A program made the position numbers and the translations under genes. The notes under the pieces were generated by a model that worked only from the letters and a program-made list of their open reading frames with translations, ran no database searches and was not told the origin of the DNA. A stretch of DNA of 64,000 nt, from the NCBI GenBank assembly GCA_026770705.1, contig JANJGN010000008.1, forward strand, positions 137,082,001 to 137,146,000. The letters are read 5' to 3'. The stretch is from Isurus oxyrinchus. Taxonomy: Eukaryota. Position 1 is the first letter of the stretch, and each line of letters opens with the position of its first letter. Below are positions 1-63,812 of this stretch, one piece after another.

Positions 1-649
1 TTGAACAGTGAACTCAGAGGCAACCTGCTAGAAGGCTGATTTCGATGGCGGGTCCACTGCTGCACCAAGCGGGGTTGATGCCTGGAACTGATCCCAGCAC
101 TCAATGTTCCCAGTTCGGCAGATTCCAGCCTCTGCCTGTGGCACCTAATTCTTTACACCTCGAGTCTCCAGAAGTCTGTTTTTAACTCGCTTCTCCTCTG
201 TCATCACCAAGGTGGATGGCCAAAAGATGAAAAGTTTCTTTGCACTAACTGATGATTCCTGCAGCAGCAGGGAAGGGTGGCTTCATTTGAGCGCTTGTCA
301 CTGCTGATCACTGGACTGATGCGACCATGGTTCCTCATGCACTTGGGAAATTGGGCACAATTCAATGAACCCAACCAAGCAAAATGGTTGGAAACTCACC
401 TTTCTGTCCTGGGGGCACCTTTTAGTTTTGTGAGCAGGAACTGGTTCAGGCGAGCATATTTTTAAGGTCATGACTACTGTGTAGACCAATGTAAATATGG
501 GCACATCTCATTTACACCCAAGGTTTCCTGATCCTTATGCATTTGACTTGGTTCCAATTAGACTGTGCTGTTATCTGGTTGGAAATCAAATGGAAAGTGA
601 GTTGGCTATCTTTGACATTCTCCACTGTTGCTGCAGCTTTAACTGGTCA

Positions 650-4713: not shown

Positions 4714-4864
4714 ACTCTTTTTGCATTGGAGATATAAACTAAACTCACCATAGAAATTAAATCACATCCATTTCAGTTTAAATACACTTTTAATGAGGTG
4801 CTAAGTGTTAATTAGGCCAATCAACCTCACTGGAACCGAAAATGAACTAATACAAATATGTAAT

Positions 4865-4962
4865 TAAAAACAGAAAATGCTGCTAAAACTCAGCAGGTCT
4901 GGCAGTATCTGTGGAGAGAGAAACAGAGTTATCATTTCAAGCCCATATGATCCTTCTTCAGA
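4865..4962 (-). mobile_element. Short Penelope-type tail element with degenerate hammerhead motif
   Basis: Reverse complement reads ctgaagaaggatcatatgggcttgaaatgat...ctctccacagatactgccagacctgctgag; same family as 63299-63431. Confidence 0.7.
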
Positions 4963-5699
4963 GATAAAGAGCTACAAATATGTATAGTCTCAGTCCTTCA
5001 GGTTTTAATTGCTTTTGCAGATTTTAAAAATGTCAAATTTAAAATTAAAACTTCTTTTACTTTTCTTTCTGTCTCTCCTTTGCTTTTTTAATATTTATTT
5101 CACTCTTTTTATTTCTCTTTCCCAGTTCGACATTTGACCTTTCATCTCAGCCCTTGCACTGTAAGTCCCACAATCCTTCAATCAGATTGGTTGAGGAGAT
5201 ACTCAGTTGCATGCCCTGATGAGTCAGGTCCCAGAGGGTTTGTTTCCCTCACTGTGACGTCATTAGCTCGAGCCTTGTGCAACTTCCTACACACAAAATA
5301 AAAATTAGGGATCAAAACACGACAGGAAAACTCCTGGCAAATGCCGTTAGAGTCAGTCCACAACAAATTGCAGGCTATTTCCTTTCTGCAAGAGTTCAGC
5401 CACAATGTCTAGAGGTAGGGGCACTGAAATGAGATTGATTGGTCATAATACTAGCACGCTCCTACAATTTCAAGAGTGGAGCAATGTTAATGTTGCTCTG
5501 AAATCCCTACAAAATTTAAACAGCACCTATAAACTGGGATACATGTGGACATAAATATTTATTGTGTTTCAGCCAGCTGATTCCATTATAGCTCCTAGAT
5601 AAAATGAAACACAAAAATGCTTTACTGAATCACAACATCAACTGAAATAAGATATTGCCTATGATTATTGATTAGGTCAAATCTGAGGTTGACAACAAA

Positions 5700-6135: not shown

Positions 6136-6939
6136 GGGCTTGCCTTTTGGGGAGCATGACTTGCAAAGCTGTGCAGAGTAGCTTATGGGCTCCTGGGGGG
6201 GTCCTTGTTCAAAGCTACTCTGTGCCTGATTGAGGGACCTGGCATTGAGAAGAGGGACCGCACTCAGAGCCAATGACCATCCTTGCTGTGGAACCCCTCC
6301 CCACCCTATCTGCAACCCAGTCCCCAAGGTGATCAAACCAATTACCAACAAAAAATTTAAGGGATTCCTTAAAGGGGGATGGTGGGTGGGGGACAAAGAC
6401 AGGGTACAGGACAACCAGCCCAATTATGGAATGATTAAGAAATTCCAGGACAGTTGGTCACCCTGTCCCCGCCACCCCCCCCCCCCCCACCCCCCCCTTC
6501 CCCAAATCTGCCATCACTCGCATGTGACCTGGGACCCTGATCCTGGGCCATGGGCAGGTGTCATTCTAGCAGCAACCACTGCTTCCTTAGCTATGCTACA
6601 GTGCCACAATTGAGCCACCAGCTAATACCTTAGGGTGAAACAAAGACAGAAGATGTTGAAAGGACTCAGCCAGTGAGGCAACATCTGTGGAGAAAGTAGA
6701 ATAATCGACATTTTGTACCAGATTTAATGGAGGCAATGGGCATCTTGCCTGCTGGCTGGATAGCTGGCGGGAACCCCGTGTCTCTTCTTCTCAGGGAAGC
6801 CCATGATATTAAGTGTCACTCAGGCACTTAACTGGAGAGTAGTAGGCCTTCGCCAGGATAAAGGATCCCAGGAGCAGAAGTCCCACCCATCAGGATCTGT
6901 CAGCCAATCAGAGGCTGACAGCTTCACTAAGATTGTAGG

Positions 6940-18120: not shown

Positions 18121-20044
18121 TGAAAGTCATGAGGAGATGTTTAGATTCTCATTGGAGATGGCCTTTTCTTGGCAAATGTATTGCATGAATGTTATGTACC
18201 ACTTATGAGCACAGGTCTGGATGTTGACCAGGTCTTTATGCATGTGGTTATGTACTGCTTCATTATCTGAGGTATTATAAATGGTTTGGAACACTATTCA
18301 ATCATCGGCAAACATCTCTACTATTGACTTCGTGATGGAGGGAAGGCCATTGATGAAGTATCTGCAGTTGATTAGATCTAGGGCTTGCCTCAATGAACTC
18401 CAGCAGCGATGTCTCAGGGGTGAGATGGTTGGCCTCCAGCAACAATAACTCTCTTGCTTTGTGCAAAGTATGTCTCTAGCTAATAGAGGGGTGTCCCTCT
18501 GATCTCCATTAACTTCAATTTTACTAAGTGTGGACCACCCTGGGTCAAATGTTGCCTTGATGTCAAGAGCAGTCACTCTCATCCCATCTCTGGAACTTGG
18601 CTGTTTCGTCCCCATTTGGACTGAGGCTATAGTGAGGTCTGCAGTTGTCAGGTCCTGGCAGAATCCAAACCGAGCATTGGTGAGCAGTTCATTAGTGAGT
18701 GAATGCCGCCTGATAGCACTGTCAATGGCACTTTCCATCACTTTGCTGATGATTGAGAGTAGACTGATGGGGCAGTCCTATTTTTTGTGGGCAAGATATA
18801 GTTGAGCAACTTTCCACTTTGTCAGGTAGATACTAACGTATATGCTGTACTGGGAAAGCTTGGCTAGAGGACCGGCCTCTTCTGAAGCACAAAATTTTAG
18901 CTCCATAGGAGGGAAGTTGTCAGGACCCATAAGCCTTTGGTGTTGTCCATTGAATTCAGTTATTTTTTGATATCACATGGATTGGATTGAAATGGCTGCA
19001 GACTGGTATCTGTGATGGTGGGAACCTCAGGAGGAGGCCAAGATGGATCAGTCTGTCAGCAGTTCTGGCTGAAGATATTTTTGCAAGCTTCAGTCTCATC
19101 TTTTACATTTGTGCTGGACTTCACTATCATTAAGGGTGGAGATGTCCATAGAGTCTTCTCTTTTGGTTAGCTGTTTAATTGTCCAATCCCATTCACAACT
19201 GGACATGGTAGGTCTATAGAGCTTTGATCTTATCCATTGGTGTGGGTTCACTTGGCTGTGTTTATGGAATGCAGCTTCTGTGCATATAGCCCAATGTTGT
19301 TGTTTCTCCAGGTTGGCAGCTCATTTTCAAGTACACCTGATGCCACCCAGAGCATTCTCATCTACAGTCCTCATTGAACCAAGTTTGGTCCCTTAGCTTG
19401 ATCCTAGTTGTGTAATGAGGGCTTTGCTGTACCATGAGATTACAGATAGTAGTAGAATACACTTCTGCTGCTGCTGCTGGCTCTCAGTGCCTTGTGGATG
19501 CCCTCCACTTGTGGGACATGACCTACTCAGGAATGGTGATGGAGGAGTCTGGGACTTCGGTTGCTTGATATGATTCTATGAGTGTGACTATCTCAGATGT
19601 TGCATGACTAGTCTATGGGACAGTTCTCCCAATTTTGGAACAAATGTACAGAAGTTAGTGAGGAGGACTGTGCTGAGCTGACTGGACTGGGTGTATCTTT
19701 GTCACATCCAAATCTGGGTTGATGTTAGGTTATCCATCCAGTTTTATTATTCTTATGCCTTTTTGTAGCAGTTTGATACAACTGAGTGACTTACTAACCA
19801 TTTCAGAGAATAGTTAAGAGTCATCAAAATGCTGTGGTTCTGGAGTCACTGATAGTTCAGACAAGGTAAAGATGGTAGAGTTCCTTCCTTCAAGGCCTTA
19901 GTGAACCAGGTAGGTTATTTATGGCAATTTAATAGCTTCATGGTCACCAATATTCATACTAGTTTTTATTCCAGACGTTTTTTTTTAAGAAAGCTAGTAT
20001 CAAAAATAGTAGTATCAAAAATAGTAACTATGAAGTTTTATTTT

Positions 20045-29819: not shown

Positions 29820-32678
29820 GTGACCTGGCTCTAGGTAGGGCAGGACTGGGCATTAAATATTCCAGGGCACAAGGTGTTTGGGAGAGACAGGAAAGGAAGG
29901 AACAGAGTGGCAATGTTGATTAAAGATGGTATTACAGTACTGGAGAGAGAGAGAATGTTCCAGAGGGGTCAAGGGCAGTATCTCTCTGGCTAGAGGTAAG
30001 GAATGAAAAAGATGATTGGTGTAGTATAGGTCACCAACTAGTGGAAGGGATGTAGAGAAACAAATTTGCAAAGCAATTACAGAGAGGTGCAAGAATAATA
30101 GAGTAATCATAGTGGGGGACTTCAATTATCCAAATACAGACTGGGATAGGAATGGTACGAAGGGACAAGAGGGGCTAGAGTACCTGGAATATATTCAGGA
30201 TAATTTTTTGCAGCAGTGTGTTTCCAGTCCAATGAGAGCATATGCACTTTTGGACCTGGTTCTGGGGAATGAGTTGGCCCAAGTAGATTAAATATCAGTG
30301 GGAGAGCCTCTAGGGGACAGTGATCATTGTATTGTGACTCTTAGCTTAGTCATGGAAAAGGACAGGGCACAATCCAGAGCAGGGATAATTAATTGGGGGA
30401 AAGCCAACTTCGATGGGATGAGAATACATCTGAGTCAGGTGAGTTGGAATCAAATGTTGTCAGAAAGGACAGTGTCTGAATAATGGGCTACCTTCAAAGG
30501 AAAGGTATTGCAGACAATGTAAAAGTATATTCCCTAGAAGGAGAAAGGTAGGACAAATAAATCCGGAGCACCCTGGATGACAAGATGATAGAGGTAAAGA
30601 TGAAAAAGAAGTACAACAGATGTCAGGTAGAAAATACAATGGAGAATCAGGCTGAATATAGAAGGACCAGAGGGGAAGTGAAGAAACTGATAAGAAAAGC
30701 AAGGACGGAGCATGAAAAGAGGCTGGCAGTTAACATAAAAGGGAATCCCAAGGTCTTCTACAAGCATGTAAATAATAAAAGGGTGGTAAAAAAAAACAAA
30801 AGCAGGGCCAATTAGGGATAAAAAAAAAGGGGACTTGCATGTGAAGGCTGGATAAATAGCGAGAAGGTATTGAATGTGCACTTTGCATCTGTCTTTACAA
30901 AGGACGAAGATGCCGCCCAGGCTGAGATGAGAGAGGAGGTAACTGGTTTATTAGATGAATTTATAATTGAGAGGGAGGAGGTGTTAGAACTTTACTCAAA
31001 ATAAGTAAAGCTTCAGGACTGAATGAGATGCATCCAAGGGTACTGAGGCAAGTGAGATTGGAAATTGCAGAGGCACTAGTGATAATCTTCCATTCTTCCT
31101 TAGACACAGGGGAGGTGCCAGAGGACTGGAGAATTCTGAATGTTACACCCTTGTTCAAAAGGGGTGCAAGGATGTAGCTTGCAACTACAGACCAGTCAGT
31201 TTGACCTCAGTGGCATGGAATCTTCTGGAAACTATAAGAGTCATTCGGACTTGAAATGTTAACTGTATTCCTCTCCACAGTTGCTGTCAGACCTGCTGAG
31301 TTTTTCCAGCTATTTTTATTTTTGTTTTTGTTCTGGAAACTATAGTTCAGGATAAAATCAAAAGTCACTTCAACAAGTGCAGGATAAATAAGGAAAGCCA
31401 GCATGGATTCATTAAAGGAAAATCATGTTTAACAAACTTGCTGGAGTTTTTTTGAGGATGTAACAGAGAAGGTTGATAAGGGAAACATTGTTGATGTGTG
31501 TATGGGTTTTCAAAAGGTATTTGATACAGTGCCACACAACAGACTTGTGAGCAAAGTTTTAGCTCATGGAATAACTGTGAAAGTAGGCGCTTGGATAAAA
31601 AATTTGCTGAGTGACAGGAAACAGAGTTTAGGAATAAATGGGGTTTTTCAGACTTGGGGAAGGCTTGTAGTGCAGTTCCCCAGGGGTCAGTGTTGTGACC
31701 CTTGCTCTTCCTGATATATATCAGTGACCTAGACTGTGGTGTGCAGGACATGATTTCAAAATTTGCAGATGATATAAAGATTGGAAATGTCAACTGTGTT
31801 GATGATAGCCTTGAACTTCAAAAGGACAAAGACATCTTGGCGGGTAGGGCAGACAAGTAGCAGATGAAGTTCAATGCAGAGAAGTGTGAGGATATCCATT
31901 TTGGCAGGAAGAATATGTTGAGACAATAGAAAATAAAGGGAGAGACTCTAAAGGGAGTGCAGGAACAGAGGGACCTCAGTGTATACGAACATAGGTCATT
32001 GAAGATGGCAGGACATGCTGAGAGAGCAGTTAACAAAGCATATAGTATTTATTAATAAGGGCATTGAGTACAAGAGTAAAGAGGTCATATTGAACTTGTA
32101 TCAGACACTAGTTATTCTCATTTGGAGTACTGCATCCAGTTCTGGGTGCCATGCTTGAGGGAGGATATGAAGGCATTGGAGAGAGTACAGAGGAGGTTCA
32201 CAAGAATGATTCCAGGGATAAAGAACTGTAGTTATAAGGATAGATTGGAGAGATTGTGGTTCTTTTCCCTGGAGAAAAGAAGGCTGAGAGGAGACTTGAT
32301 AGAGGTATTCAAGTTCCCGAGAGGTATGGACAGGGTAAATAGTGAGAAACTGTTCCCACCCAAGAGAACATCAAGAACTAGAGGGCACAAATTCAAAATA
32401 ATTGGCAAAGAGAGTAAATATGATGTGAGGAAAAATTTCTTCACCAAGAGGATGGCTGGGATCTGGAACAAACTTCCTGAATGGCTAGTGGTGTTGGTGA
32501 TGGAGGCAGCTTTGATCGAGGTATTCAAAAGAGTATTGGATTGCTGCCTGAAAAAAAATAATGTGCAAAGTTACGGGGCTAAAGCAGGGGAGTGAGACTA
32601 GATGGGGTTGTTTACAGAAAACCGGTGCAGACTTGATGGGCTGAATGGCCTCGTTCTGCACTGAAAGATTCTATGATA
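29820..32678 (+). mobile_element. CR1 (HER1-like) LINE, most of ORF2
   Basis: APE VGDFNYP, GDSDHC; RT FDTVPH, KFADD; tail gatgggctgaatggcctcgttctgcactgaaagattctatga. Confidence 0.9.
31237..31330 (+). mobile_element. Short Penelope-type tail insert, truncated within the hammerhead
   Basis: Exact 14-bp TSD ttctggaaactata (31223-31236 / 31331-31344); begins at stem II agagtcattcggacttgaaatgtt. Confidence 0.85.
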
Positions 32679-35871: not shown

Positions 35872-36146
35872 AGTGGCAGGGGGATGGGAACCTGAGCGGG
35901 GAGACACAAGAGAAGGAAACAAAGAAAGGAACGAAAGACAGAAAAGTAGAAATCAAAAGTGGAAGGCAGAGGAATCAAGGGCTAGCAGCAAATAGGGCCA
36001 TAGCACAAAAAAGATGTGTAAAAGTGTTGAAAAAGACAAGTCTAAAGGCACAGTATCTGAATGCATGGAGCATTCACAATAAGGTAGATGAAGTAACAGC
36101 GCAAATAGATGTAAATGGCTACAATATGATTACAATTATGGAGACA

Positions 36147-36360
36147 AAAACAGAAAATGCTGGAAAAACTCAGCAGGTCTAACAGCATCTGTAGAGAGAA
36201 AGACAGAATTAACGTTTCGAGTCCGTATGACCCTTCTTCAGGCTCTTCTTCAGTCATACAGACTGGAAAGGTTAACTCTGCCTGTTAGACCTGCTGAGTT
36301 TTGCCAGCATTTTCTATATCTGTTTCAGATTTCCAGCATCACCAGTATTTTGCTTTTATC
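36147..36360. mobile_element. Head-to-head inverted dimer of the short hammerhead-bearing element
   Basis: Exact 17-bp TSD ttacaattatggagaca (36130-36146 / 36361-36377); the two arms are reverse complements. Confidence 0.88.
36205..36245 (-). ncRNA. Minimal type I hammerhead ribozyme motif
   Basis: CUGAAGA-A-GGGUC auacg GACUC-GAAAC-GUU; intact core, palindromic AACGUU stem III. Confidence 0.7.
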
Positions 36361-39300
36361 TTACAATTATGGAGACATGGCTGTAGGGTGACGAAGGCTG
36401 GGAACTGAATAACCAAGGGTACTCGATATTTAGGAAGGACAGGCAAAAAGGAAAAGGAGGTGGTGTGCATTGTTACTTAAGGATGAGATCAATGCAATAG
36501 TGAGAGAAGGTATTGGCTCAGAAAATCTAGATGTAGTGTCAGTCTGGGTGGGGCTAAGAGGCAACAAAAGGGGGAAACATTAGTGGGAGTTGTCCATAGG
36601 TCTCCAAACAGTATTGATAAAGTAGGCAATGGCATTAAATAGGAAATTAGAGATGCATGTAACAAGGGTTCTACAGTAATCATGGATGACTTTAATCTAG
36701 ATATAGATTGGACCAACCAAATTAGCAATAATACTCTGGCAGATGTATTCCTGGAGTTTACAGAAGGTGGATTTTTAGCACAGTATGTCAAGGAACCAAC
36801 TAGGGATCAGGCTATCCTAGATTTGGTACTGTGCAATGAGAAGGGATCAATTAATAATCTTGTTGGGCAGGGTCCTTTAGGGAACAGTGACCATAACATG
36901 ATAGAATTCTTCATTAGGATGGAAAGTGAAGTAGTCCGATCTAAAACTAGGGTCCTAACTCTGAACAAAGGAAACTACAAAGGTATGAGGGGTGAGTTGG
37001 CTCAGATACTTTGGGGAACTTCATTAAAAGGAATGATGGTGGATAGGGAATAGCTAGTATTTAAGGAATGAATGTATGCATGGCAACTGTTATACATTCC
37101 TTTCTGGCTCAAAAACACAACAGGAAAAGCAGCCCAGCCATGGCTAACAACAGTAATTAAGGATAGTATTAGATCCAAAGAGGAGTCATATAAAGTTGCT
37201 AGAAAAAGTAGCAAGCCTGAGGATTCAGAGCAGTTTAGAATTCAGCAAAGGAGATCCATGAAATTGATTAGGAGAGGAAAAATAGAGTACAAGAGTAAAC
37301 TTACAAGGAGCATTAAAACAAACTGTAAAAGCTTCTACAAGTATGCAAAAAGAAAAATATTAGAGAAGAAATATGTAGGCCTCTTACAGTCCAAAATGGG
37401 AGAATTTATAAGCGAGAACAAGGAAATGGCAGAGTAATTAAACAACTATTTTTAGTTCTGCCTTCACAGAGGAAGACACACATAACTTACAAGAAATGAT
37501 AGGGAACCAAGTGTCTAGTGAGAAGGAGAAATTGAAGGAAATTCGTATTACTAAAACAATAGTGCTGAAGAAATTAATGGGACTGAAAGCTGATAAATTC
37601 CCTGGGCCTGATTATTCTACATCCCAAGGCACTAAAGGAAGGGGCCATGGAAATAGTGAATGCGTTGGCTCTCATCATCCAACATCCTGTAGATTCTGCA
37701 ACAGTTCTGGCAGATTGGAGGGTGGAAAATGTAACCCCACTATTTAAAAAAGGAGGGAGAAAACAACGGATTATAGACCATTTAGCCTAAAATCAGTCGT
37801 AGGGAAAATGCTGAACCTATTATAAAGAATGTGATAACAAGACAATTAGAAAATATCAACAGGATTAGACAAAGTCAGCATGGATTTATGAAAGGGAAAT
37901 CATGTTTGACAAACCGACTGGAGTTCTTTGAGGACGTAACTAGCAGTAAAGATAAGAGAGAACCAGTAGATGTGGTGCGTTTGGATTTTCAGAAACTTTT
38001 GATAAAGTTCCACTTAAGAGGTTAGTGTGTAAAATTAAAGCACATGGGATTAGGATTAATATATTGACATGGACGAGAATTGGTAAACAGACAGGAAACA
38101 GACTATAGGAATAAATGGGACTTTTTCAGAATGGCAGGTGGTGACTAGTTGGGCACCGCAGGAATCAGTGCTTAGGTCCCAGCTATTCACAATATATATC
38201 AATGATTTAGATGAGGGAACCAAATGTAATATTTCCAAGTTTGCTGATGACATGAAACTTGGTGGGAATATGAGTGGTGTTAAGAGGCTCCAAGGCAATT
38301 TAAGCAGGTTGAGTGAGTGGGCAAATACATAGCAGATGCAGTGTAATGTGGAGAAGTGTGAAGTTATCCACCTTGTTAGGAAAAACAGAATGGCAGAGTA
38401 TTATTTATTGGTGACAGATTGGGAAATGTTGATGTACAAAGGGACGTGGGTGTCCTTGTATACCAATCACTGAAAGCAAGCATACAGGTGCAGTAAGCAG
38501 TTAAGAAGGCAAATGGTATGTTGGTCTTCATTGTGAGACAACTTGAGTAGAGGAGCAAGGATGTCTAACTGCAACTGCAGAGGACCTTGGTGAGACCACA
38601 CCTAGAGTATTATGTGCAGTTTTGGTCTCCTTACCTAAGAAAGGATACACTTTCCTTAGAGGGAGTGCAGCAAATGTTCAGCAGACTGATTCCTGTGATG
38701 GCAGGATTATTGCATGAGGTGCGATTGGGTCGACTAGGTCTGTATTTACTGGAGTTTAGAAGAATGAGGGGGAATCTCATTGAAATGTATAAAATTCTGA
38801 CAGGGATGGACAGACTGGATGCAGGGATAATATTTCCTCTGGCTGGGGAGTCTAGAACAAGGGGTCACAGTCTCAGGATACTGGGTAGGCCATTTAGGAC
38901 TGAGATGAGGAGAAACTCCTTCACTCAGAGGGTGGTGACCCTGTGGAATTCTCTACCACAGAAGGCTGTGGAGGCCAAGTCACTGAATGTATTTAAGAAG
39001 TAAATAGATAGATTTCTGGACTATAAAGGTGTAAAAGGGTATCAAGAGAGTGCAGGAGTAGAGCATTGAGATAGAGGAGCAGCCATGATCTTACTGAATG
39101 GCGGAGCAGGCTCAAAGGGCCGAATGATTTGCTCCTGCTCCTATTTTCTATGTTTCTATGTTTCTACTTTTTCTCTGCTGGTCCTGCTGATGGTCAACTG
39201 CTTTTTGGTCTCACTATACCACTGTTCTGAATATTTAGCACTACTGTTCAGATGGCCACATTCTGGAGAGCACAATACAGAAACATCTTTTTTCCTCTGC

Positions 39301-40820: not shown

Positions 40821-41159
40821 ATTTCCTTGTGGTAGTGTGAATTATCAAAATATAACTCCAAGAGAGAATGCAAAATTCCATTTTGCCTTCTCTGGGAATC
40901 ATAACTTTGATCTGCTTTTTTAATTTCACAATGTCCACCAAACTGTCAACCAGATATTCATTCTCTAAGAGCTGCAGGTATGAAGTTGGCTGCTGTCATA
41001 AAGTGGACATTGTGATTTGCAGAACGACGATTGCTTTTGTCATCTTTATTTTAGCTTAGCATTAGGAAGCCGTTTACCACATCACAGCTCGTTTTCTCTT
41101 CTGGAAAAAAGCATGGATAACAAAACTAAAGTTAACAAAAAAAACACTGCACGGCAGTT

Positions 41160-41275
41160 TTCAGAAATCTGAAATAATACCAGAAAATTCTGGAAACACT
41201 TAGCACTCAGTTAGCATCTGTGGAGAGAACAGACAAGCTAATATTTCAGGTGTGTGACATTCATTAGAAAGGGAC
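41160..41275 (-). mobile_element. Old short Penelope-type tail element
   Basis: aaatctgaaataat..cagaaaattctggaaacacttagc...gcatctgtggagagaa. Confidence 0.6.
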
Positions 41276-43604: not shown

Positions 43605-43830
43605 AGCTCTCCTTATGGGCTCTCTCTCATCAAACTCTCACTGCTTTATAGGCTCTCTCTCTTCAAACTTTGTGCTGCTTTATGGGCTCTCTCTCTGAAC
43701 TCCATGCTGCTTTACAGGCTCTCTCTGTCCAAACTCTGTGCAGCTTTATGGGCTCTCTCTCTCCGAACTCAACGCTGCTTTACGGGCTCTCTCTCTCTGA
43801 ACTCTGCGCTGCTTTATGGGCTCTCTTTCA
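43605..43830. repeat. Minisatellite, about 7 copies of a ~33-bp unit
   Basis: gctgctttatgggctctctctct(c)cgaactc.. repeated head-to-tail. Confidence 0.9.
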
Positions 43831-48939: not shown

Positions 48940-49814
48940 CTGAAATAAAAACAGAATGTAATGGAAATTCTCAGCAGTTCTGGCAGCATCCATGGGGAGA
49001 GAAACAGAGGCCTGAATTTTCCCGTCGGCGATTTGGGGGCGGGGCCCACTCACCGATGGGAAAATAGCGTGGGCTGACGTCAGGAGGAACCCCCGACGTC
49101 ATCCCGGTCCCTTTAAACTTTTAGTAAGGTGGGCGGACAGGCTAATTAAGATAATTAAAGACCTGCCCGTCCAACCTTAAGGTTAGCGGGCAGGCCAGGA
49201 GCCCCAGCGGGCTTCTGATAAAGCATGAAACCTCATTCACTGGCGGGATGAGGTTTCATGTTGTCCATTTTTAAAAAGTCTAATAAAGTTTATGTCATTT
49301 TTATTAACATGTCCCATCTGGTGTGACATTGTCACATGAGGGGGACATGTTAATAATTTTTCTATCTTTTGACTTTTCTTACCTGTCACTAATCTCCCTG
49401 AGACAGGACTTTGCCTCAGGGAGCAATGCGCTCTTTCGCATACGTGCGTGAAAGAGCGCACTTTGACAGACGCGGAATCCCCCCTCCCCCCCCCCACCCC
49501 CTGCACAGGAATTGCTTAGTGCTTCCTATCGGGCAGGCTGCTGGGCGGGCCTTAATTGGTCCGCCCACTCAAAATGACGACGGGCCCCGTTTCGGAGGTG
49601 AGGGTCGGCTGTCCGCCCACCGCCGAGCCAGCGGGGCCCGCCTGCCCATTGAGGGCAAAATTCTGCCCAGAGTTTCAAGTTGAATATGACTCTTCTTCAG
49701 AGAAGAATTCCTTTGAAGAAGAGTCAAATGTGATCTGAAATGTTATGTCTTTCTTTCTCCACAGATGCTGCTGGACCTGCTGATTATTTCCAGCACTTTG
49801 TGTTTTTATTTCAG
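48940..49814. mobile_element. Inverted dimer of the short hammerhead-bearing element, split by a MITE
   Basis: Ends ctgaaataaaaaca / tgtttttatttcag; centre gactcttcttcaga...tttgaagaagagtc. Confidence 0.8.
49009..49668. mobile_element. Young Harbinger-type MITE
   Basis: TIRs ggcctgaatttt / aaaattctgccc; exact TSD aga; CpG-rich; internal hairpins. Confidence 0.9.
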
Positions 49815-50696
49815 TGAAACTGACAGTGATATTCTCTAAGATTTGCTAGCTCATTTGAGATTAGAAAATTTGTTTAGTGATGTGGTCAGTACAGTTAATT
49901 AGAATCATAATCAATTGTAAAGAATTTTTAAACTACTTTAGTTTGAAACATGAGATAACTGAGTTTGCTACTCACTCAGTTTACAGTTCAGCTTGAACAG
50001 TAATGAATTTTGGATCATATTTCAGCATGCATCTTTGGAGGTCCATCTTGATATCCTGGCCAAGTGGATCGCTTTGTCCTAGATGTTGTTGAGCTTTTTT
50101 GAGTGTTGTTGGAGCTGGAATCAATCTTGTATTCCTCAAAATCTCATCAACCAGACATTATGAGACATTATCATAATTCTTACTTCTTCAATGACAATGC
50201 TGTGTGTCATTGGCAGGTTTGGTGGTTTGCGCTTAGGAAGTTAGAAAATATGAGATAATATGGGGGCAAGATGCATGTAGTTTGCCTCTTACCATCCTGG
50301 TAGTCATATGATGCTATTATGATGGAGCTGTTGACTAATCATAGCAATCAATAGGTATCTGTTAGTCTGCAATAGACCTAAACATGCTATACTTAATCAC
50401 ATTTCATGTCTCAAATTACTCAAAATATTATTTTCTCTGAGATCTGAACATTGATGTCAAAGATATTGAATTAGACACTCAGTGGAGAATGTTAATCTCC
50501 AAGCAAGAATGGGTTGGGGTCAGTTGGAGAGGAAAAATAGCACAAATGGCAAGCATGACCTCAACCCTCCTCCAGCTTACCCATTCCTTGCATGTGGAGG
50601 TGGTTTTGGCTATGTGTAAGTAATTTGCTCATTGTAGGTGGCGTGATCATTAGGACAAGTGCAATAATCATTACAGAAGTAAAATATGGGCACTCA

Positions 50697-50890
50697 AAAT
50701 CTGAAATAAAAACAGAAAATACTGGAAATACCCAGCAGGCCAAGCAACATCTGTGGAGATAGGTAAACAGATATTACATTTCAGTTCTATGATTGATGGA
50801 AGGTCATCATTCTGTTGTCTGATGCAAGGGGATCAACCTAAAACATTAACTCTGGTTCTGTCTCCACAGATGCTGCCTGACCTACTGATT
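50697..50890. mobile_element. Older inverted dimer of the short Penelope-type element
   Basis: catctgtggaga (about 50748) mirrored by tctccacagatg (about 50861). Confidence 0.7.
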
Positions 50891-52789: not shown

Positions 52790-54460
52790 AATTGCTTTAA
52801 TTGAATGCTCCTAACTACCACGATGTGGTGCAACCCATGCGGCTTCAGTAGGGCAGACTGTTCAGACCCCTGCTCTGACTGCTGAGAAACTTTTGAACTA
52901 TGACCTCTGTGCTTCAGAGCCCCTGAGGCCTCCCTCCAAAGCCTGTTCCAGCTGCACCTGCACAGAGGTAGGCCCGGCCATTGGGAGGTGAGGCAACATG
53001 TGGTGTACTGGCTGGGGAGAAGGTGAGCAACATTGAGAAGTTGGAGTGGTTTCAGTGTAATTTCCTTCATGGCCCCTTTTGCCATTGCCCCTCCCCTGGG
53101 TCAGTGCCACATTACTCCTCCCACTCTGCAGTAGAACAGATTTTGAGGGTTAGTGATGTGTTGAAAGGCCACAGATAAAGTATTTGTCATCTTGTTTCAA
53201 GTCACAGCTGTGGTCATGGTCTGCAAGGACACATTTGAGAACTATACATAAGGCTGTACATGGTAGTGGCTAGTGGCCACTCTCTCCATGGCAGGTACTC
53301 TCACAACTACCTACACCACCAACTCACTGCCATTGGAGTTGGACTCCTCCAGCCTCTCCTCCATTGTCAAAAGCATGTGTAGCACATCTGTCAGTACTTT
53401 ACAATGTCACTGCTGTATCTCTATCATTCTTCTTCTCAATGATGGCCCCCAGGGGTGGAGCATCTGTCTCAAGCTGAGCAGAGCTTGGAGAGAATTATGC
53501 CCCCAGTGCAGACTCTCCACAGCTCTCCTTGCCCCCAGTGTCTGTGTGTGTTTGCTTGTGAATTGTGGATCACCAGAGGAAATCCTAACTAATTCTCCAA
53601 CTGGACCCACTGAAGTGTGAGTATTTGTGCTGACAAATGGCTATATGTCCTGTGATGGTACACCTGCAGAAGGAATGATATCTTCTGAGCAATTATCCTC
53701 CTGCATATCCTAGACTCTTGCTCTATGTGTTAAGGCCCTGGAAGAGAAAAAAAAGTCGATATGAATTAGTCCTGGCAAAGTAACAGTCTTGACAATCACA
53801 GGCTTCTCATCATTCAGTCATTGATGAAAGAAAGTCAGCATAGGTGTCAGAAGTATTTTTAATTCTGTCACCAGGCAACTGCATGTTCCCAGTCTCCCCA
53901 TCTCTGAGCAGGATGCAGATGTGCCACTTATCTCCATGGCCTCCTCCTCTGTATTTGCAAGCTGCATAATTTGTGGCAAGCTACCTCCAAATCTTTTCCA
54001 CTCCTTTGTATTTTGTGCTCTCTTCTCCTGCTGAGGGTGACAGAACAGACCTGTGAGTGCAAAAGCAAAGAAGTGGTGTGGATGCTAGAAAACATGAATG
54101 AAAATAGAAATTGCTGGAAATAGCTGCTGGGTCCAGCAGTATCTGTGGAGAGAGAAACAGAGTCAATGGTTCAGCTCAATGGCCCTTCGTCACAACAATG
54201 AGTGACTGAAGTTCATGTATTCACCCAATGGATGCAGTGCATTTGGTGATGGTGACTTCCAGGCAGATGCACCACCTTACATAAGGAATGGATTGAGTCA
54301 CAGCAGTTGATAGATACATAGGGACGTGAGGAAGTACATAGAAGGAGAATGATGGGTATATGGTTTTATGTGGTGGAGCAGATGATGGCAAAGCGAGAGG
54401 ATGGGCTGGTGCACACAGTAGGATGTGGGTGAATGACTGTACTCACCTTTCCTAAAGCAT
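52790..54460 (-). pseudogene. Harbinger Myb/SANT-like accessory gene relic (spliced), copy 1
   Basis: Convergent to the transposase; donor at about 54446; exon EKRAQNTKEWKRFGG...EEEAMEISG; acceptor at about 53738. Confidence 0.65.
54095..54195 (-). mobile_element. Short Penelope-type tail element
   Basis: gaaattgctggaaat...cagcagtatctgtggagagagaaacagagtcaatggttcag...cccttcgtca. Confidence 0.65.
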
Positions 54461-54498: not shown

Positions 54499-57400
54499 TA
54501 TTGTAGGGCAGCCGAGTTGTACAATTAATGATAATTGATCTTCAGACATTTCTTGGGCATAAATTTTAAATTTATTTACAACATACTCAAAGGCAACTAC
54601 ACGTGTGCTTTCAAATCCAACTCCAAGTCTACACTGACTGCTGAGGTTGCCCCTGCTACTCTCATATTGGTTACTACAGATCATGTGATCTCACTTAACA
54701 TGTATTATTCTTAAAGGTACATTACAACACTAAATAAAACCATAATTATTACATTCCTCCCCCTTTGTGTTTATTGTCCCTCCTGCCAGCTTGGCATACA
54801 GGTGTTCGATTTTTAGAATGAGGTGCCTATCTAGCTTAGCTACTTTATGAACTGTCAGTTGGTAGTCTCCACAAATTCAGAAGCTTTGGTCGGGTTTAAG
54901 GACAGGGCTATGGCCATTCAGAGAACTGAACAGGTTGCATAGCATCCAGTTTCTCTAATCTGTTCAGTTTAATATTGATTTTTTCTTGCAGGGCATATGG
55001 CACCAGTCTCACCTTCATGAAGTGAGGAATTGCTTTCAGATCCACATGAATCTTGGCCTGCAGGCCCTGGTTTTCTCCAGTTTGTCCTTAAAGATGGTGG
55101 CATACTTTCTATAGCTCTGGTAGCCCACTTGCTCTCAACCGGAAAGTTTCAGCCCATTGGAACTGAGTCTCCTTTAAACAATTTCATCCCAGGAGGCTTG
55201 GCCCTTCACCTGCTAATGCCATCAAGGGTAGCTTTGCCGACTGGCTTCCATAGAGTCATAGAGTCATAGAGACATAGAGGTCTACAGCACAGAAAAAGGC
55301 CCTTCAGCCCATCGAGTTTGTGCCAGTCAAACAAGTACCTAACTATTCTAATCCCATTTTCCAGCACTAGGCCCATAGCCTTGTATGCCATGGCATTGCA
55401 AGTGCATGTCCAAATACTTCTTAAGTGTTATGAGGGTTTCTGCCTCTACCACCCTTTCAAGCAGTAGGTTCCAGATTCCCACCACCCTCTGGGTGAAAAA
55501 ATTCTTCCTCACATCCCCTCTAAACGTCCTGCCCCTGATCTCATATCTATGTCCCCTGGTTATTGATCCCTCCACCAAGGGGAAAAGTTCCTTCCTGTCT
55601 ACCCTATCTATGCCCCTCATAATTTTATACACCTCAATCATGTCCCCCCTCAATCTCCTCTGCTCCAGGGAAAATAACCCCAATCTATCCAATCTCTCCT
55701 CATAACTAAAATTCTCCAGCCCAGGCAACTTCCTGGTAAATCTCCTCTGCACTCTCTTGTGCAATCCTTCCTACAATGCAGATTCCAGAACCAAACACAA
55801 TACTCTAGCTGTGGCCTAACCAGCATTTTATACAGTTCCAGCATATCCTCCCTGCTCTTATATTCTATGCCTCAGCTAATAAAGGCAAATATCCCATATG
55901 CCTTCTTAACCATCTTATCTACCTGTCCCACTACCTTAAGGGACCAGTGGACATGCACGCCAAGGTCTCTGATCCTTAGTACTTCCTAGGGTCCTATCAT
56001 TCATCATGCCTTGTTAGTCCTGTTCAAGTGCATCACCTCACACTTGTCCGGATTAAATTCCATTTGCCACTGATCAGTCCATCTGACCAGCCCATCTATA
56101 TCTTCCTGTAATCTAAGGCTATCCTCCTCACTATTTACCACCCCACCAATTTTCGTGTCATCCCTGAACTTACTGACCAGCCCTGCTACATTCAAGATTA
56201 AATCGTTTATATATACCACAAACAGCAAGGGACCCAACACCGATCCCTGTGGAATCCCACTGGTCATAGGCATCCAGTCACAAAAACATCCCTTGACCAT
56301 CACCCTCTGCTTCCTGCCACTCAGCCAAGTCTAGATCCAATTTGCCAAATTGCCTTGGGTCCCATGGGCTCTTACCTTCATTATCAGTCTCCCATGTGGG
56401 GACTTATCAAAAGCCTTGCTGAAGTCCAAGTAGACTACGTCAAATGCATTGCCCTCATTTACACACCTGGTCACCTCTTCGGAAAAATCAGTCCAATTGG
56501 TCAGATATGACCTACCCTTAACAAAACCATGCTGACTGTCCTTGATTAATCCCTGCCTCTCCAAGTGTAGATTAATTCTGTCCCACAGAATTGTTTCCAA
56601 TAGTTTCCCCACCACTGAGGTTAGACTGAGTGGCCTGTAATTCCCTGGTTTATCCCTTCCTCCCTTCTTGAATAATGGTACCTGTCTGTAGCGGACAGTT
56701 ACTCTGCTTATGCCTTTTATTTGAATGTCTTCACCCATATATGGTTTTAGCTTAGCATCTGTTTCTTCTAAACTTAATTGATGTTCACCATTTTCCAAAT
56801 ACCTGAAGGTCTGTTCCCAATTACTGTAGTGAAAGTTCTCATGTTCACTGCCATTTTAACATGTTTGCCATTTTACTTTCACTCTGACAAATATTGGTTC
56901 TGTCTTTCCAATTTTCAGATTAAACAATGAGTAAATGTCTGAATTTGGTGTTTCAGGTTTTTGTACATTGTAAATTTCATTGGGCTTCTTCCTTTGTTGA
57001 TAAGCCTGCTTGAATCTTTTCTTGCATTGCATCATCAAATGTCCATTTCCATGACAATAATAGCATCAGATTTGTTTAAACTGCCAGTTGCTAAAAGACT
57101 GATTGTTTCCACCTCTATTTAAATTATTCTTTGATATCGCTACTCAGTTATTTTTCATTATTCCTCGTCTAGCGGAGGCTTTTCCCACTTCTTGGCTCTT
57201 TTGTGCCTCTTTCAGTTGAGGTTTCCCATCCAATGTGGAGGACAGCGCCATTTTGAGCACCCTGTATTGCTTTCGAAACTCTCATTGCACTTTCCATGGC
57301 CAATGCTATCTCTCGTGCCTTCTTGAAATCTAATCACTTCGAAAAATAATCTTTCCTGAACAGTGTCCTCTTTCATACCACACACTAAACGATCTCTGAG

Positions 57401-63074: not shown

Positions 63075-63297
63075 TTCTCACTAAATAAGATTCCAAGGAG
63101 GGATTTTTCTTAACAAAGCTTCAAAGTATTTCACACATTATGGTCTTTATTTATAGTGTTTATTTACTACTGCAGTGGTGCCTAACTGTGAGGCACTTTT
63201 GGCTGTGGGGCACTGTGTCTTTGTAATGGATTATCCCATCTGCTATTGTGTTTATGCGGAGTGGATTGGATTTTGTAAAGCCAACATCTTATCTCCT

Positions 63298-63336
63298 GTT
63301 CTGTCGAAGAGTCATGAGGACTCGAAACGTCAACTC
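63298..63336 (+). ncRNA. Minimal type I hammerhead ribozyme motif (A6U variant)
   Basis: guu-CUGUCGA-A-GAGUC augag GACUC-GAAAC-GUC/aac; perfect 5-bp stem II; ACGU palindrome. Confidence 0.7.
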
Positions 63337-63431
63337 TTTTCTTCTCTGCCGATGCTGCCAGACCTGCTGAGTTTTTCCAGGTAATTCTGTTTTTGTTTTG
63401 GATTTCCAGCATCCGCAGTTTTTTTGTTTTT
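63299..63431 (+). mobile_element. Young short Penelope-type insert beginning at a hammerhead motif
   Basis: Exact 13-bp TSD atcttatctcctg (63286-63298 / 63432-63444); CpGs retained. Confidence 0.88.
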
Positions 63432-63812
63432 ATCTTATCTCCTGCTAGTTATTCAAAACGTTATTTTTTGTATTGGGGAGTGAGGTTTCTGCACATTATT
63501 ATTAAAGAAAACACGGGGGATGCCAACTATATCAGTTAACTTTTTAAAAAACATGAAGATGCAATTATGACCATATGGTGTTTAAAAGAAGTTACATGAT
63601 ATTGTATTGTGTTACTTTGTTTGCTTTCCCACTAAATGTTGAGATACCAGTATATGAATGAGTGATATTTGATGTACGGTTCCATTATTTTCATCATTTT
63701 TTTCTCTCTTGGAAAGGGAATCCTAATAATCCTTTAAATCATTTTGTTAAATTTCTCTCACAGGTTTACAGGTACATTTGATGGCTGAGTTTATCACAGA
63801 TTTTTAATTTTA

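Follow-up and report, generated by a model that had tools for sequence, protein, structure and literature searches.

Short hammerhead-bearing inserts in a shark genome as probable 3'-terminal stubs of an abundant Penelope-like element with a preferred 5' stop

The 64-kb window (the whole stretch of shark DNA analysed here) contains a set of short, related inserts, some of them with a hammerhead ribozyme motif and flanked by exact TSDs. A first-pass annotation of this DNA left two options for their origin, namely a distinct non-autonomous ribozyme-bearing retro-element or extreme 5' truncations of a Penelope-like element (PLE) family. The questions raised by the locus are which of the two applies, and what sets the size of the inserts, as many copies appear fixed in size because their 5' ends pile up at the 5' edge of the hammerhead. 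With a probability of about 0.9, the inserts are truncated copies that retain the 3'-terminal 100-140 bp of an EN+ PLE, abundant and recently amplified, and of its older sister subfamilies. Positions in the element are numbered from q1, set at window base 63298 where the focal insert begins, and negative values lie upstream in the parent element. The following parts were recognised in the window.

63286..63298, plus strand: left TSD of the focal insert, 13 bp, exact repeat, its last base common with the element
63298..63435, plus strand: focal stub, q1-q138, the last 138 bp of a 3.3-kb PLE (98.6% identity to the terminus of locus L026; best matches in the genome at 95-99%)
63298..63334, plus strand: minimal type I hammerhead motif of the focal copy (sequence, descriptor scan and pair counts; activity only predicted)
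63298-63300, plus strand: 5' arm of stem I of the focal hammerhead
63301-63307, plus strand: core of the focal hammerhead, CUGUCGA, with U at core position 6
63309-63323, plus strand: stem II of the focal hammerhead, then GAAAC-GUC, with the predicted cut after 63331
63400..63435, plus strand: PLE "tail" between the short (about q99-104) and the long (about q135-138) 3' ends (bimodal 3' ends in 101 copies; ORF-start continuity in L026)
63432..63444, plus strand: right TSD of the focal insert, exact repeat, its first 4 bases common with the element end
36147..36360, both strands: head-to-head two-armed insertion of a sister subfamily, with a 17-bp TSD at 36130 and 36361
31237..31330, plus strand: sister-subfamily stub beginning inside the core, short 3' end, 14-bp TSD (31223/31331)
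4863..4972, minus strand: older stub with a decayed hammerhead, 12-bp TSD (4851/4973)
49680..49812, plus strand: older stub with a short inverted arm, absent from the earlier list
50683..50890, both strands: decayed old head-to-head pair
54072..54197, minus strand: decayed old stub, TSD not found
48940..49026, minus strand: decayed old stub without a hammerhead core
41145..41251, minus strand: decayed old stub without a hammerhead core
6638..6715, minus strand: decayed old stub without a hammerhead core, the weakest match (E 0.0071)

Ten related inserts had been listed, and nine of them are homologous to the focal insert by nhmmer (E 5e-42 to 0.0071). The tenth site, 22378, was not found in the window with the focal insert even at E ≤ 10 and, without a profile match at that threshold, was rejected as a family member. 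The same search also recovered unlisted copies, at 49713-49812 and as the second arms at 36252-36363 and 50836-50890. The TSDs reported for three inserts, of 13 bp (63286/63432), 14 bp (31223/31331) and 17 bp (36130/36361), are all exact, and a fourth of 12 bp (4851/4973) flanks the copy at 4865; among random window pairs, a repeat of at least 12 bp occurred in 6 of 1500. The 4 bases that the right TSD of the focal insert has in common with the element end may reflect priming microhomology. The common motif CUGANGA..GAAAC-GUH had been overstated, as the descriptor finds a paired hammerhead in two of the ten listed copies (36147 and 63299) and the canonical CUGANGA is present only in 36147, the focal copy reading CUGUCGA. 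Within the insertion at 36147, the minus arm comprises the canonical hammerhead and a short end, and the plus arm a long end. As previously stated, no ORF of the insert family lies within the window, nor does an ORF remnant. The window also includes decayed LINE reverse-transcriptase fragments on the minus strand at 56334-56855 (RVT_1, E 1.5e-12) and 18301-18777 (RVT_1, E 0.046), two further decayed LINE RT fragments at 38569-39003 and 32080-32595, which we take to resemble CR1-type ends, and a tandem repeat at 43613-43826 (period 34/68, about six short units) that is unrelated to the inserts.

The parent element was reached by a genome search with the focal insert, which gave 40 scored candidates at 95-100% identity. 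Nine of the 11 other loci extend upstream in common sequence, one of them reaching RT and endonuclease codons, and among 23 longer stretches an open frame of 926 codons was present in three and one of 924 codons in a fourth. The parent unit measures 3321 bp, and the three ORFs are 98.3-98.9% identical. The encoded protein matches RVT_1 (E 2.8e-7) and has the motifs DKG, YIDD, VYC..C...YIG and a CPRKRCNTC linker at 792; the latter corresponds to the CX2-5CxxC linker between RT and EN that the available part of PMC8557442 gives as a Neptune/Nematis feature. Inspection of the sequence showed a C-terminal GIY-YIG-type endonuclease with CCHH, from VYCIRCSQCGLLYIG at 830 and two downstream His. The Pfam GIY-YIG model gave no match on the parent protein itself and does match a homologue that is 49% identical to it over 807 aa; the NCBIfam search gave no match, and the best-scoring named protein was an uncharacterized bamboo-shark protein (68%), which suits a cartilaginous fish as the likely host. 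Other features of EN+ PLEs found here are a single ORF with PLE-type RT, a pLTR or partial tandem, an inverted 5' copy, a 30-40 bp tail, and a hammerhead motif in the pLTR, with a canonical core in the sister subfamilies and a variant core in the young family. By the features listed in what is accessible of PMC8557442, rather than by a tree, the parent would be an EN+ PLE of Neptune or Nematis type. The option of 5' truncations of a PLE family, together with the general link between PLEs and hammerheads, was thus borne out by a parent with ORFs, the breakpoints coming from 101 sampled copies. This kind of stub is already known, and the shark PLE family is a fresh example of it.

The likely ATG of the parent lies about 35 nt past the tail, the stretch between the two 3' ends continuing into the ORF in full elements such as L026. 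In that locus, on the reverse strand, an AATAAA occurs about 55 nt past the ORF stop and about 340 bp before the 3' hammerhead, and an mRNA ending there would contain only the 5' tail site. Three loci (L141-L143, C1:12158296-12167969) form a head-to-tail array of at least three units at intervals of 3325 bp, from which long read-through RNA might arise. A sequencing run labelled as coral metagenome has 58% of the element-terminus words, which could represent carried-along fish DNA.

The most abundant family has U at core position 6, and the canonical core C3 U4 G5 A6 N7 G8 A9 is absent from the focal copy. Genome-wide and with the same stem II pattern, the U6 core (CUGUCGA) had 114,791 exact matches, about eight times the 14,729 of the canonical core. 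A hammerhead descriptor run over 902,549 bases gave 171 matches versus 4 in a Markov control. In Rfam, nothing in the window passed the gathering score, and searches of three loci recovered no hammerhead model at E ≤ 10. The proposal that stem II is kept while its loop varies stood in part. The loops AUACG, AUGAG and AUUCG are present, and across 28 natural copies (26 by homology, the focal copy and L026) 85.7% of the stem II cells are paired. One pair is altered on both sides, the closing pair changing from G-C to A-U in 9 of the 28, which probably goes back to a single event in a sister subfamily. Of 500 shuffles, 13 attained the covariation score and 275 the number of doubly changed pairs (3, against 2.7 in shuffled sets), so that the covariation support for stem II appears weak. 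Single-strand folds of the monomer were not more stable than shuffles, and the minimum-energy fold of the focal copy is other than the hammerhead. An A6C variant has been described with low hammerhead activity in the available portion of PMC3088659. According to the excerpt available of PMC4209133, no cleavage was found for a monomeric minimal hammerhead, and solo motifs had already been ascribed to truncated PLEs. Just upstream of q1 in L026, 11 nt of the young family nearly repeat the 3' arm of stem II, at the place where the sister subfamilies have a pyrimidine tract; the spacing to a TATA-like word further upstream is almost unchanged.

At the other end of the copies, the 3' ends are bimodal (n = 101), 45 lying at about q97-111 and 54 at q125-149, with 2 continuing into the ORF. 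The two sites, about 35 bp apart, define the PLE tail, which has been tied to two internal RT start sites (PMC11167929). An inverted neighbour was found beside 60 of the 101 copies. In 19 of 20 head-to-head pairs, one long and one short 3' end are joined (p 2e-5), the arm lengths of the 20 pairs being correlated (rho 0.90) and 18 having a TSD of 10-15 bp; the insertion at 36147 in the window is built alike. Mismatch between arms was 2.7% within pairs and 8.2% on average between pairs, though 2.7% is also the lower quartile of the between-pair values, and the identity of the arms does not prove that they were copied from one template. As far as the accessible parts of PMC3846280 and PMC8557442 go, the inverted-arm layout is known from rotifer and fly PLEs.

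Exact genome counts reached 98,951 for a 39-mer after the ribozyme, 43,019 for a 20-mer about 40 bp upstream and 3,594 for a 24-mer at the ORF start, with no matches for the reversed k-mer controls. The copies studied individually were the first 100 matches on one contig (3.9 Mb at the contig end), which gave 115 raw copies and 101 once 14 duplicates from overlapping loci had been taken out; the arms of one insertion were counted separately and are not independent. After correction of the 5' ends with five sister references, 31 of the 101 lie beyond q-300 (the longest at q-3020, and three of the 31 cut by the locus edge), 11 in q-300..-61, 15 in q-60..-11, 34 in q-10..14 and 10 in q15..55. The distribution is continuous and peaked, with a stop rate of 25 per 1000 per base in q-5..4, compared with 5.3 upstream and 2.4 downstream. 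Two hot-spot assignments (L076) reflected the differing upstream sequence of a sister subfamily and were removed, the count falling from 36 to 34; of the 33 copies without an element neighbour, 12 were in the peak before this correction, two of them being those later removed. The sister subfamilies repeat the peak, as 19 of 30 canonical-core loci have no pLTR-like sequence beyond about 10 bp upstream, a count read by eye in which two loci are arms of one insertion. No 5' end was observed at the predicted cut site (after q34; 0 of 101 in q33-37), and ribozyme cleavage was rejected on this count as the origin of the stub ends.

The pile-up of 5' ends is real and is what remains of the impression of a discrete element. 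The stubs are likely laid down by the PLE's own reverse transcriptase and endonuclease. By analogy with work on an Anolis PLE (PMC11167929), the enzyme would nick both target strands about 12-15 bp apart, and the cDNA would be primed inside the RNA at one of the two tail sites. For many stubs, priming would take place on the hammerhead-tail unit's 5' copy within an RNA beginning at about q0, and the enzyme would run off the RNA end after 100 or 140 nt; for longer copies the source would be template jumps or, in read-through RNA, the 3' copy. That the stop is run-off at an RNA 5' end at about q0, which would likely be the transcription start, has in our judgement about an even chance of being correct, and the ribozyme cleavage likely has no role in the making of stubs.

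Several observations are consistent with an RNA end at q0. In all 11 sister copies that extend upstream, and also in the young family, a loose TATA-like word precedes the core by 32-36 nt, the sequence between the two having diverged, and an initiator-like pyrimidine-A word is found at q0. Composite inserts were searched with a variable-gap pattern, which gave 5 forward and 0 reverse matches; the count is a lower bound. In all five (selected by this pattern), a tail-primed piece is joined to ORF sequence at q278-301, and the second piece stops at q1, q2, q11, q85 and q141, that is, never upstream of q0, the first stop being selected by the pattern. One composite has a private variant common to all three of its pieces. 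Two further composites join at about q1000, with stops at q-1 and q-12, and the locus L019 is a full unit starting at q3. Against a simple run-off, 17 of the 22 ORF-start copies that reach q0 extend at least 140 bp upstream and 4 stop in q-12..9 (three of the 22 belong to one tandem array); therefore, read-through templates or jumps must be added to it.

Three other explanations of the stubs have to be weighed against this one. Two of them keep the same parent and differ in what stops the 5' ends. In one, the hot spot would arise where the RT stalls, or the second strand is captured, as the 5' edge of the hammerhead fold is met; each crossing would carry the same fixed probability of a stop, and no RNA end would be involved. 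In all subfamilies seen, the peak does coincide with the 5' arm of stem I, most ORF-start copies go past q0, and the stop rates at the two crossings, 36 of 91 for the 3' copy and 4 of 22 for the 5' copy, are not significantly different (p 0.08), which also fits a stall at each crossing. However, a polymerase moving 3' to 5' on the RNA should halt on entering the stem (about q38-45) and not on leaving it, the local folds of four hammerhead-only stretches are no stabler than shuffles (z +0.3 to +1.0), and the repeated stops near q0 within one composite insert suit a physical end better, leaving the stall rather unlikely. In the other, a pLTR intron like that of D. virilis Penelope would have its 3' splice site at q0-q1, with the stub boundary set by RNA processing. 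The upstream words can just as well be taken for a branch point, a pyrimidine tract and a splice AG; 10 of the 11 sister copies extending upstream, as well as the young family, have at q0-q1 an AG after a pyrimidine tract with a branch-point-like word. In the portions available of the sources, the D. virilis Penelope promoter is TATA-less with its start 46 bp before an intron (PMC2377424), and the end of the Penelope intron meets helix I of the hammerhead (PMC4209133). Nevertheless, no common upstream exon occurs on any stub, the five direct joins go to ORF sequence, the AG itself is retained in many stubs, and the tract of the young family holds a purine-rich stretch with the hot spot kept. 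Presumed-RNA contigs of public runs, compared with two pLTR stretches, yielded no GT-AG joint and no accumulation of starts, though such contigs can show neither starts nor absence. An intron boundary appears improbable, even more so than the stall. A possible splice donor past the hammerhead, GTAATT in the young family, was weighed separately and rejected, many sister copies being without the GT and no joint having been seen.

The remaining explanation is the other option of the first-pass annotation, a distinct non-autonomous ribozyme element, retrozyme- or SINE-like, with a unit of 100-140 bp copied by the PLE enzyme. Near-identical limits in a third of the sampled copies speak for it, and pLTR-derived retrozymes have been described, also in a cartilaginous fish, in the part of bioRxiv 10.64898/2026.07.22.740005 that is available. 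However, the continuum of copy lengths that had been named beforehand as evidence against such an element is what the 101 copies display, with 5' ends running up to near full length and the ends of the peak scattered over about 25 bp. Stubs (n = 29) and long copies (n = 45) have the same common alleles and similar divergence, and the stubs have no private alleles. No tandem-repeat build occurs among the copies in the window, the sampled ones being solo, head-to-head or within long elements, and none of the 101 ends at the ribozyme cut site. In addition, the stubs lack the putative promoter upstream of q0 as well as the ORF-start region required by the Anolis enzyme (PMC11167929), and the dominant core is non-canonical. 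The distinct-element reading is largely refuted and is the least probable of the three.

Returning to the run-off reading of the truncated PLE ends, the joins to ORF sequence raise a further possibility. The landing site at q278-q301, about 140 nt past the tail and inside the ORF start, recurs in several loci (L144/L186, L154, L139, L075 and L187-L190), and 3 of 30 ORF-start copies break at q278-279, joined to a hammerhead-tail end. This site may mark where the protein holds the RNA. Tentatively, and with the odds somewhat against it, the PLE could make a retrovirus-like strong-stop cDNA, tail-primed near the RNA 5' end and running off it, followed either by insertion of the 100-140 nt piece or by a jump back to about q280 or to the terminal repeat, with decay of the hammerhead core to follow in the most successful family. 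If true, the strong-stop piece would have been inserted tens of thousands of times in this genome, and strong-stop jumps would explain pseudo-LTRs and partial tandems without the ribozyme. Should transcription start at the q0 stop, internal priming on the RNA 5' end would have left its genomic trace in the stubs.

Truncated PLEs with solo minimal hammerheads have featured in publications since 2014, and the element itself is ordinary. Its interest lies in the PLE copying cycle, for which about 10^5 near-identical ends of a young family record where copying started, stopped and jumped between templates in vivo. Moreover, the amplification of a family with an altered catalytic core bears on whether cutting by PLE hammerheads is needed at all. 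Earlier work describes PLE stubs bearing hammerheads, tails, inverted arms and TSDs. In the literature searched, which did not extend to Repbase, Dfam, subscription journals or supplements, no account was found of the shark family, the fixed 5' stop, or a strong-stop product or A6U core in any PLE.

Comparison with known systems places the shark family closest to familiar PLEs, with differences in detail. As with the Neptune/Nematis-type EN+ PLEs in the available text of PMC8557442, it shows a single ORF with RT, a CX2-5CxxC linker and, at the C-terminus, a GIY-YIG-type domain, heavy 5' truncation, partial tandems and an inverted 5' copy, and the optional 30-40 bp tail and pLTR hammerhead; it differs from what is given there in reaching about 10^5 copies for one family and in a dominant family with U at core position 6. 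The TSDs of the shark copies are mostly 10-17 bp, compared with 8-10 bp in the Adineta examples in the accessible part of PMC3846280. The metazoan PLE minimal hammerheads of PMC4209133 likewise have an extra base before stem II, a G-C closing pair, no real stem III, a palindromic ACGU and mostly solo copies, whereas the A6U core was not found, and sharks are not named, in the part of that source available. With Poseidon PAc of Anolis (PMC11167929), the shark element shares two internal start sites that define the tail, priming of both strands, RNA ends absent at the cut site and a hammerhead cleavage that is unnecessary. The PAc ORF, however, starts inside the hammerhead and its tail is coding, unlike the shark ATG about 35 nt past the tail, and the fixed 5' stop and the jumps to about q280 seen in the shark element were not found reported for PAc in the sections available. 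Non-LTR retrozymes, as described in the available parts of PMC7229834 and bioRxiv 10.64898/2026.07.22.740005, are also non-coding and PLE-related, with a type I hammerhead and long TSDs. In contrast to their tandem repeats, with a hammerhead per unit and circular RNA, the shark inserts represent the ends of a coding element, present singly or head-to-head.
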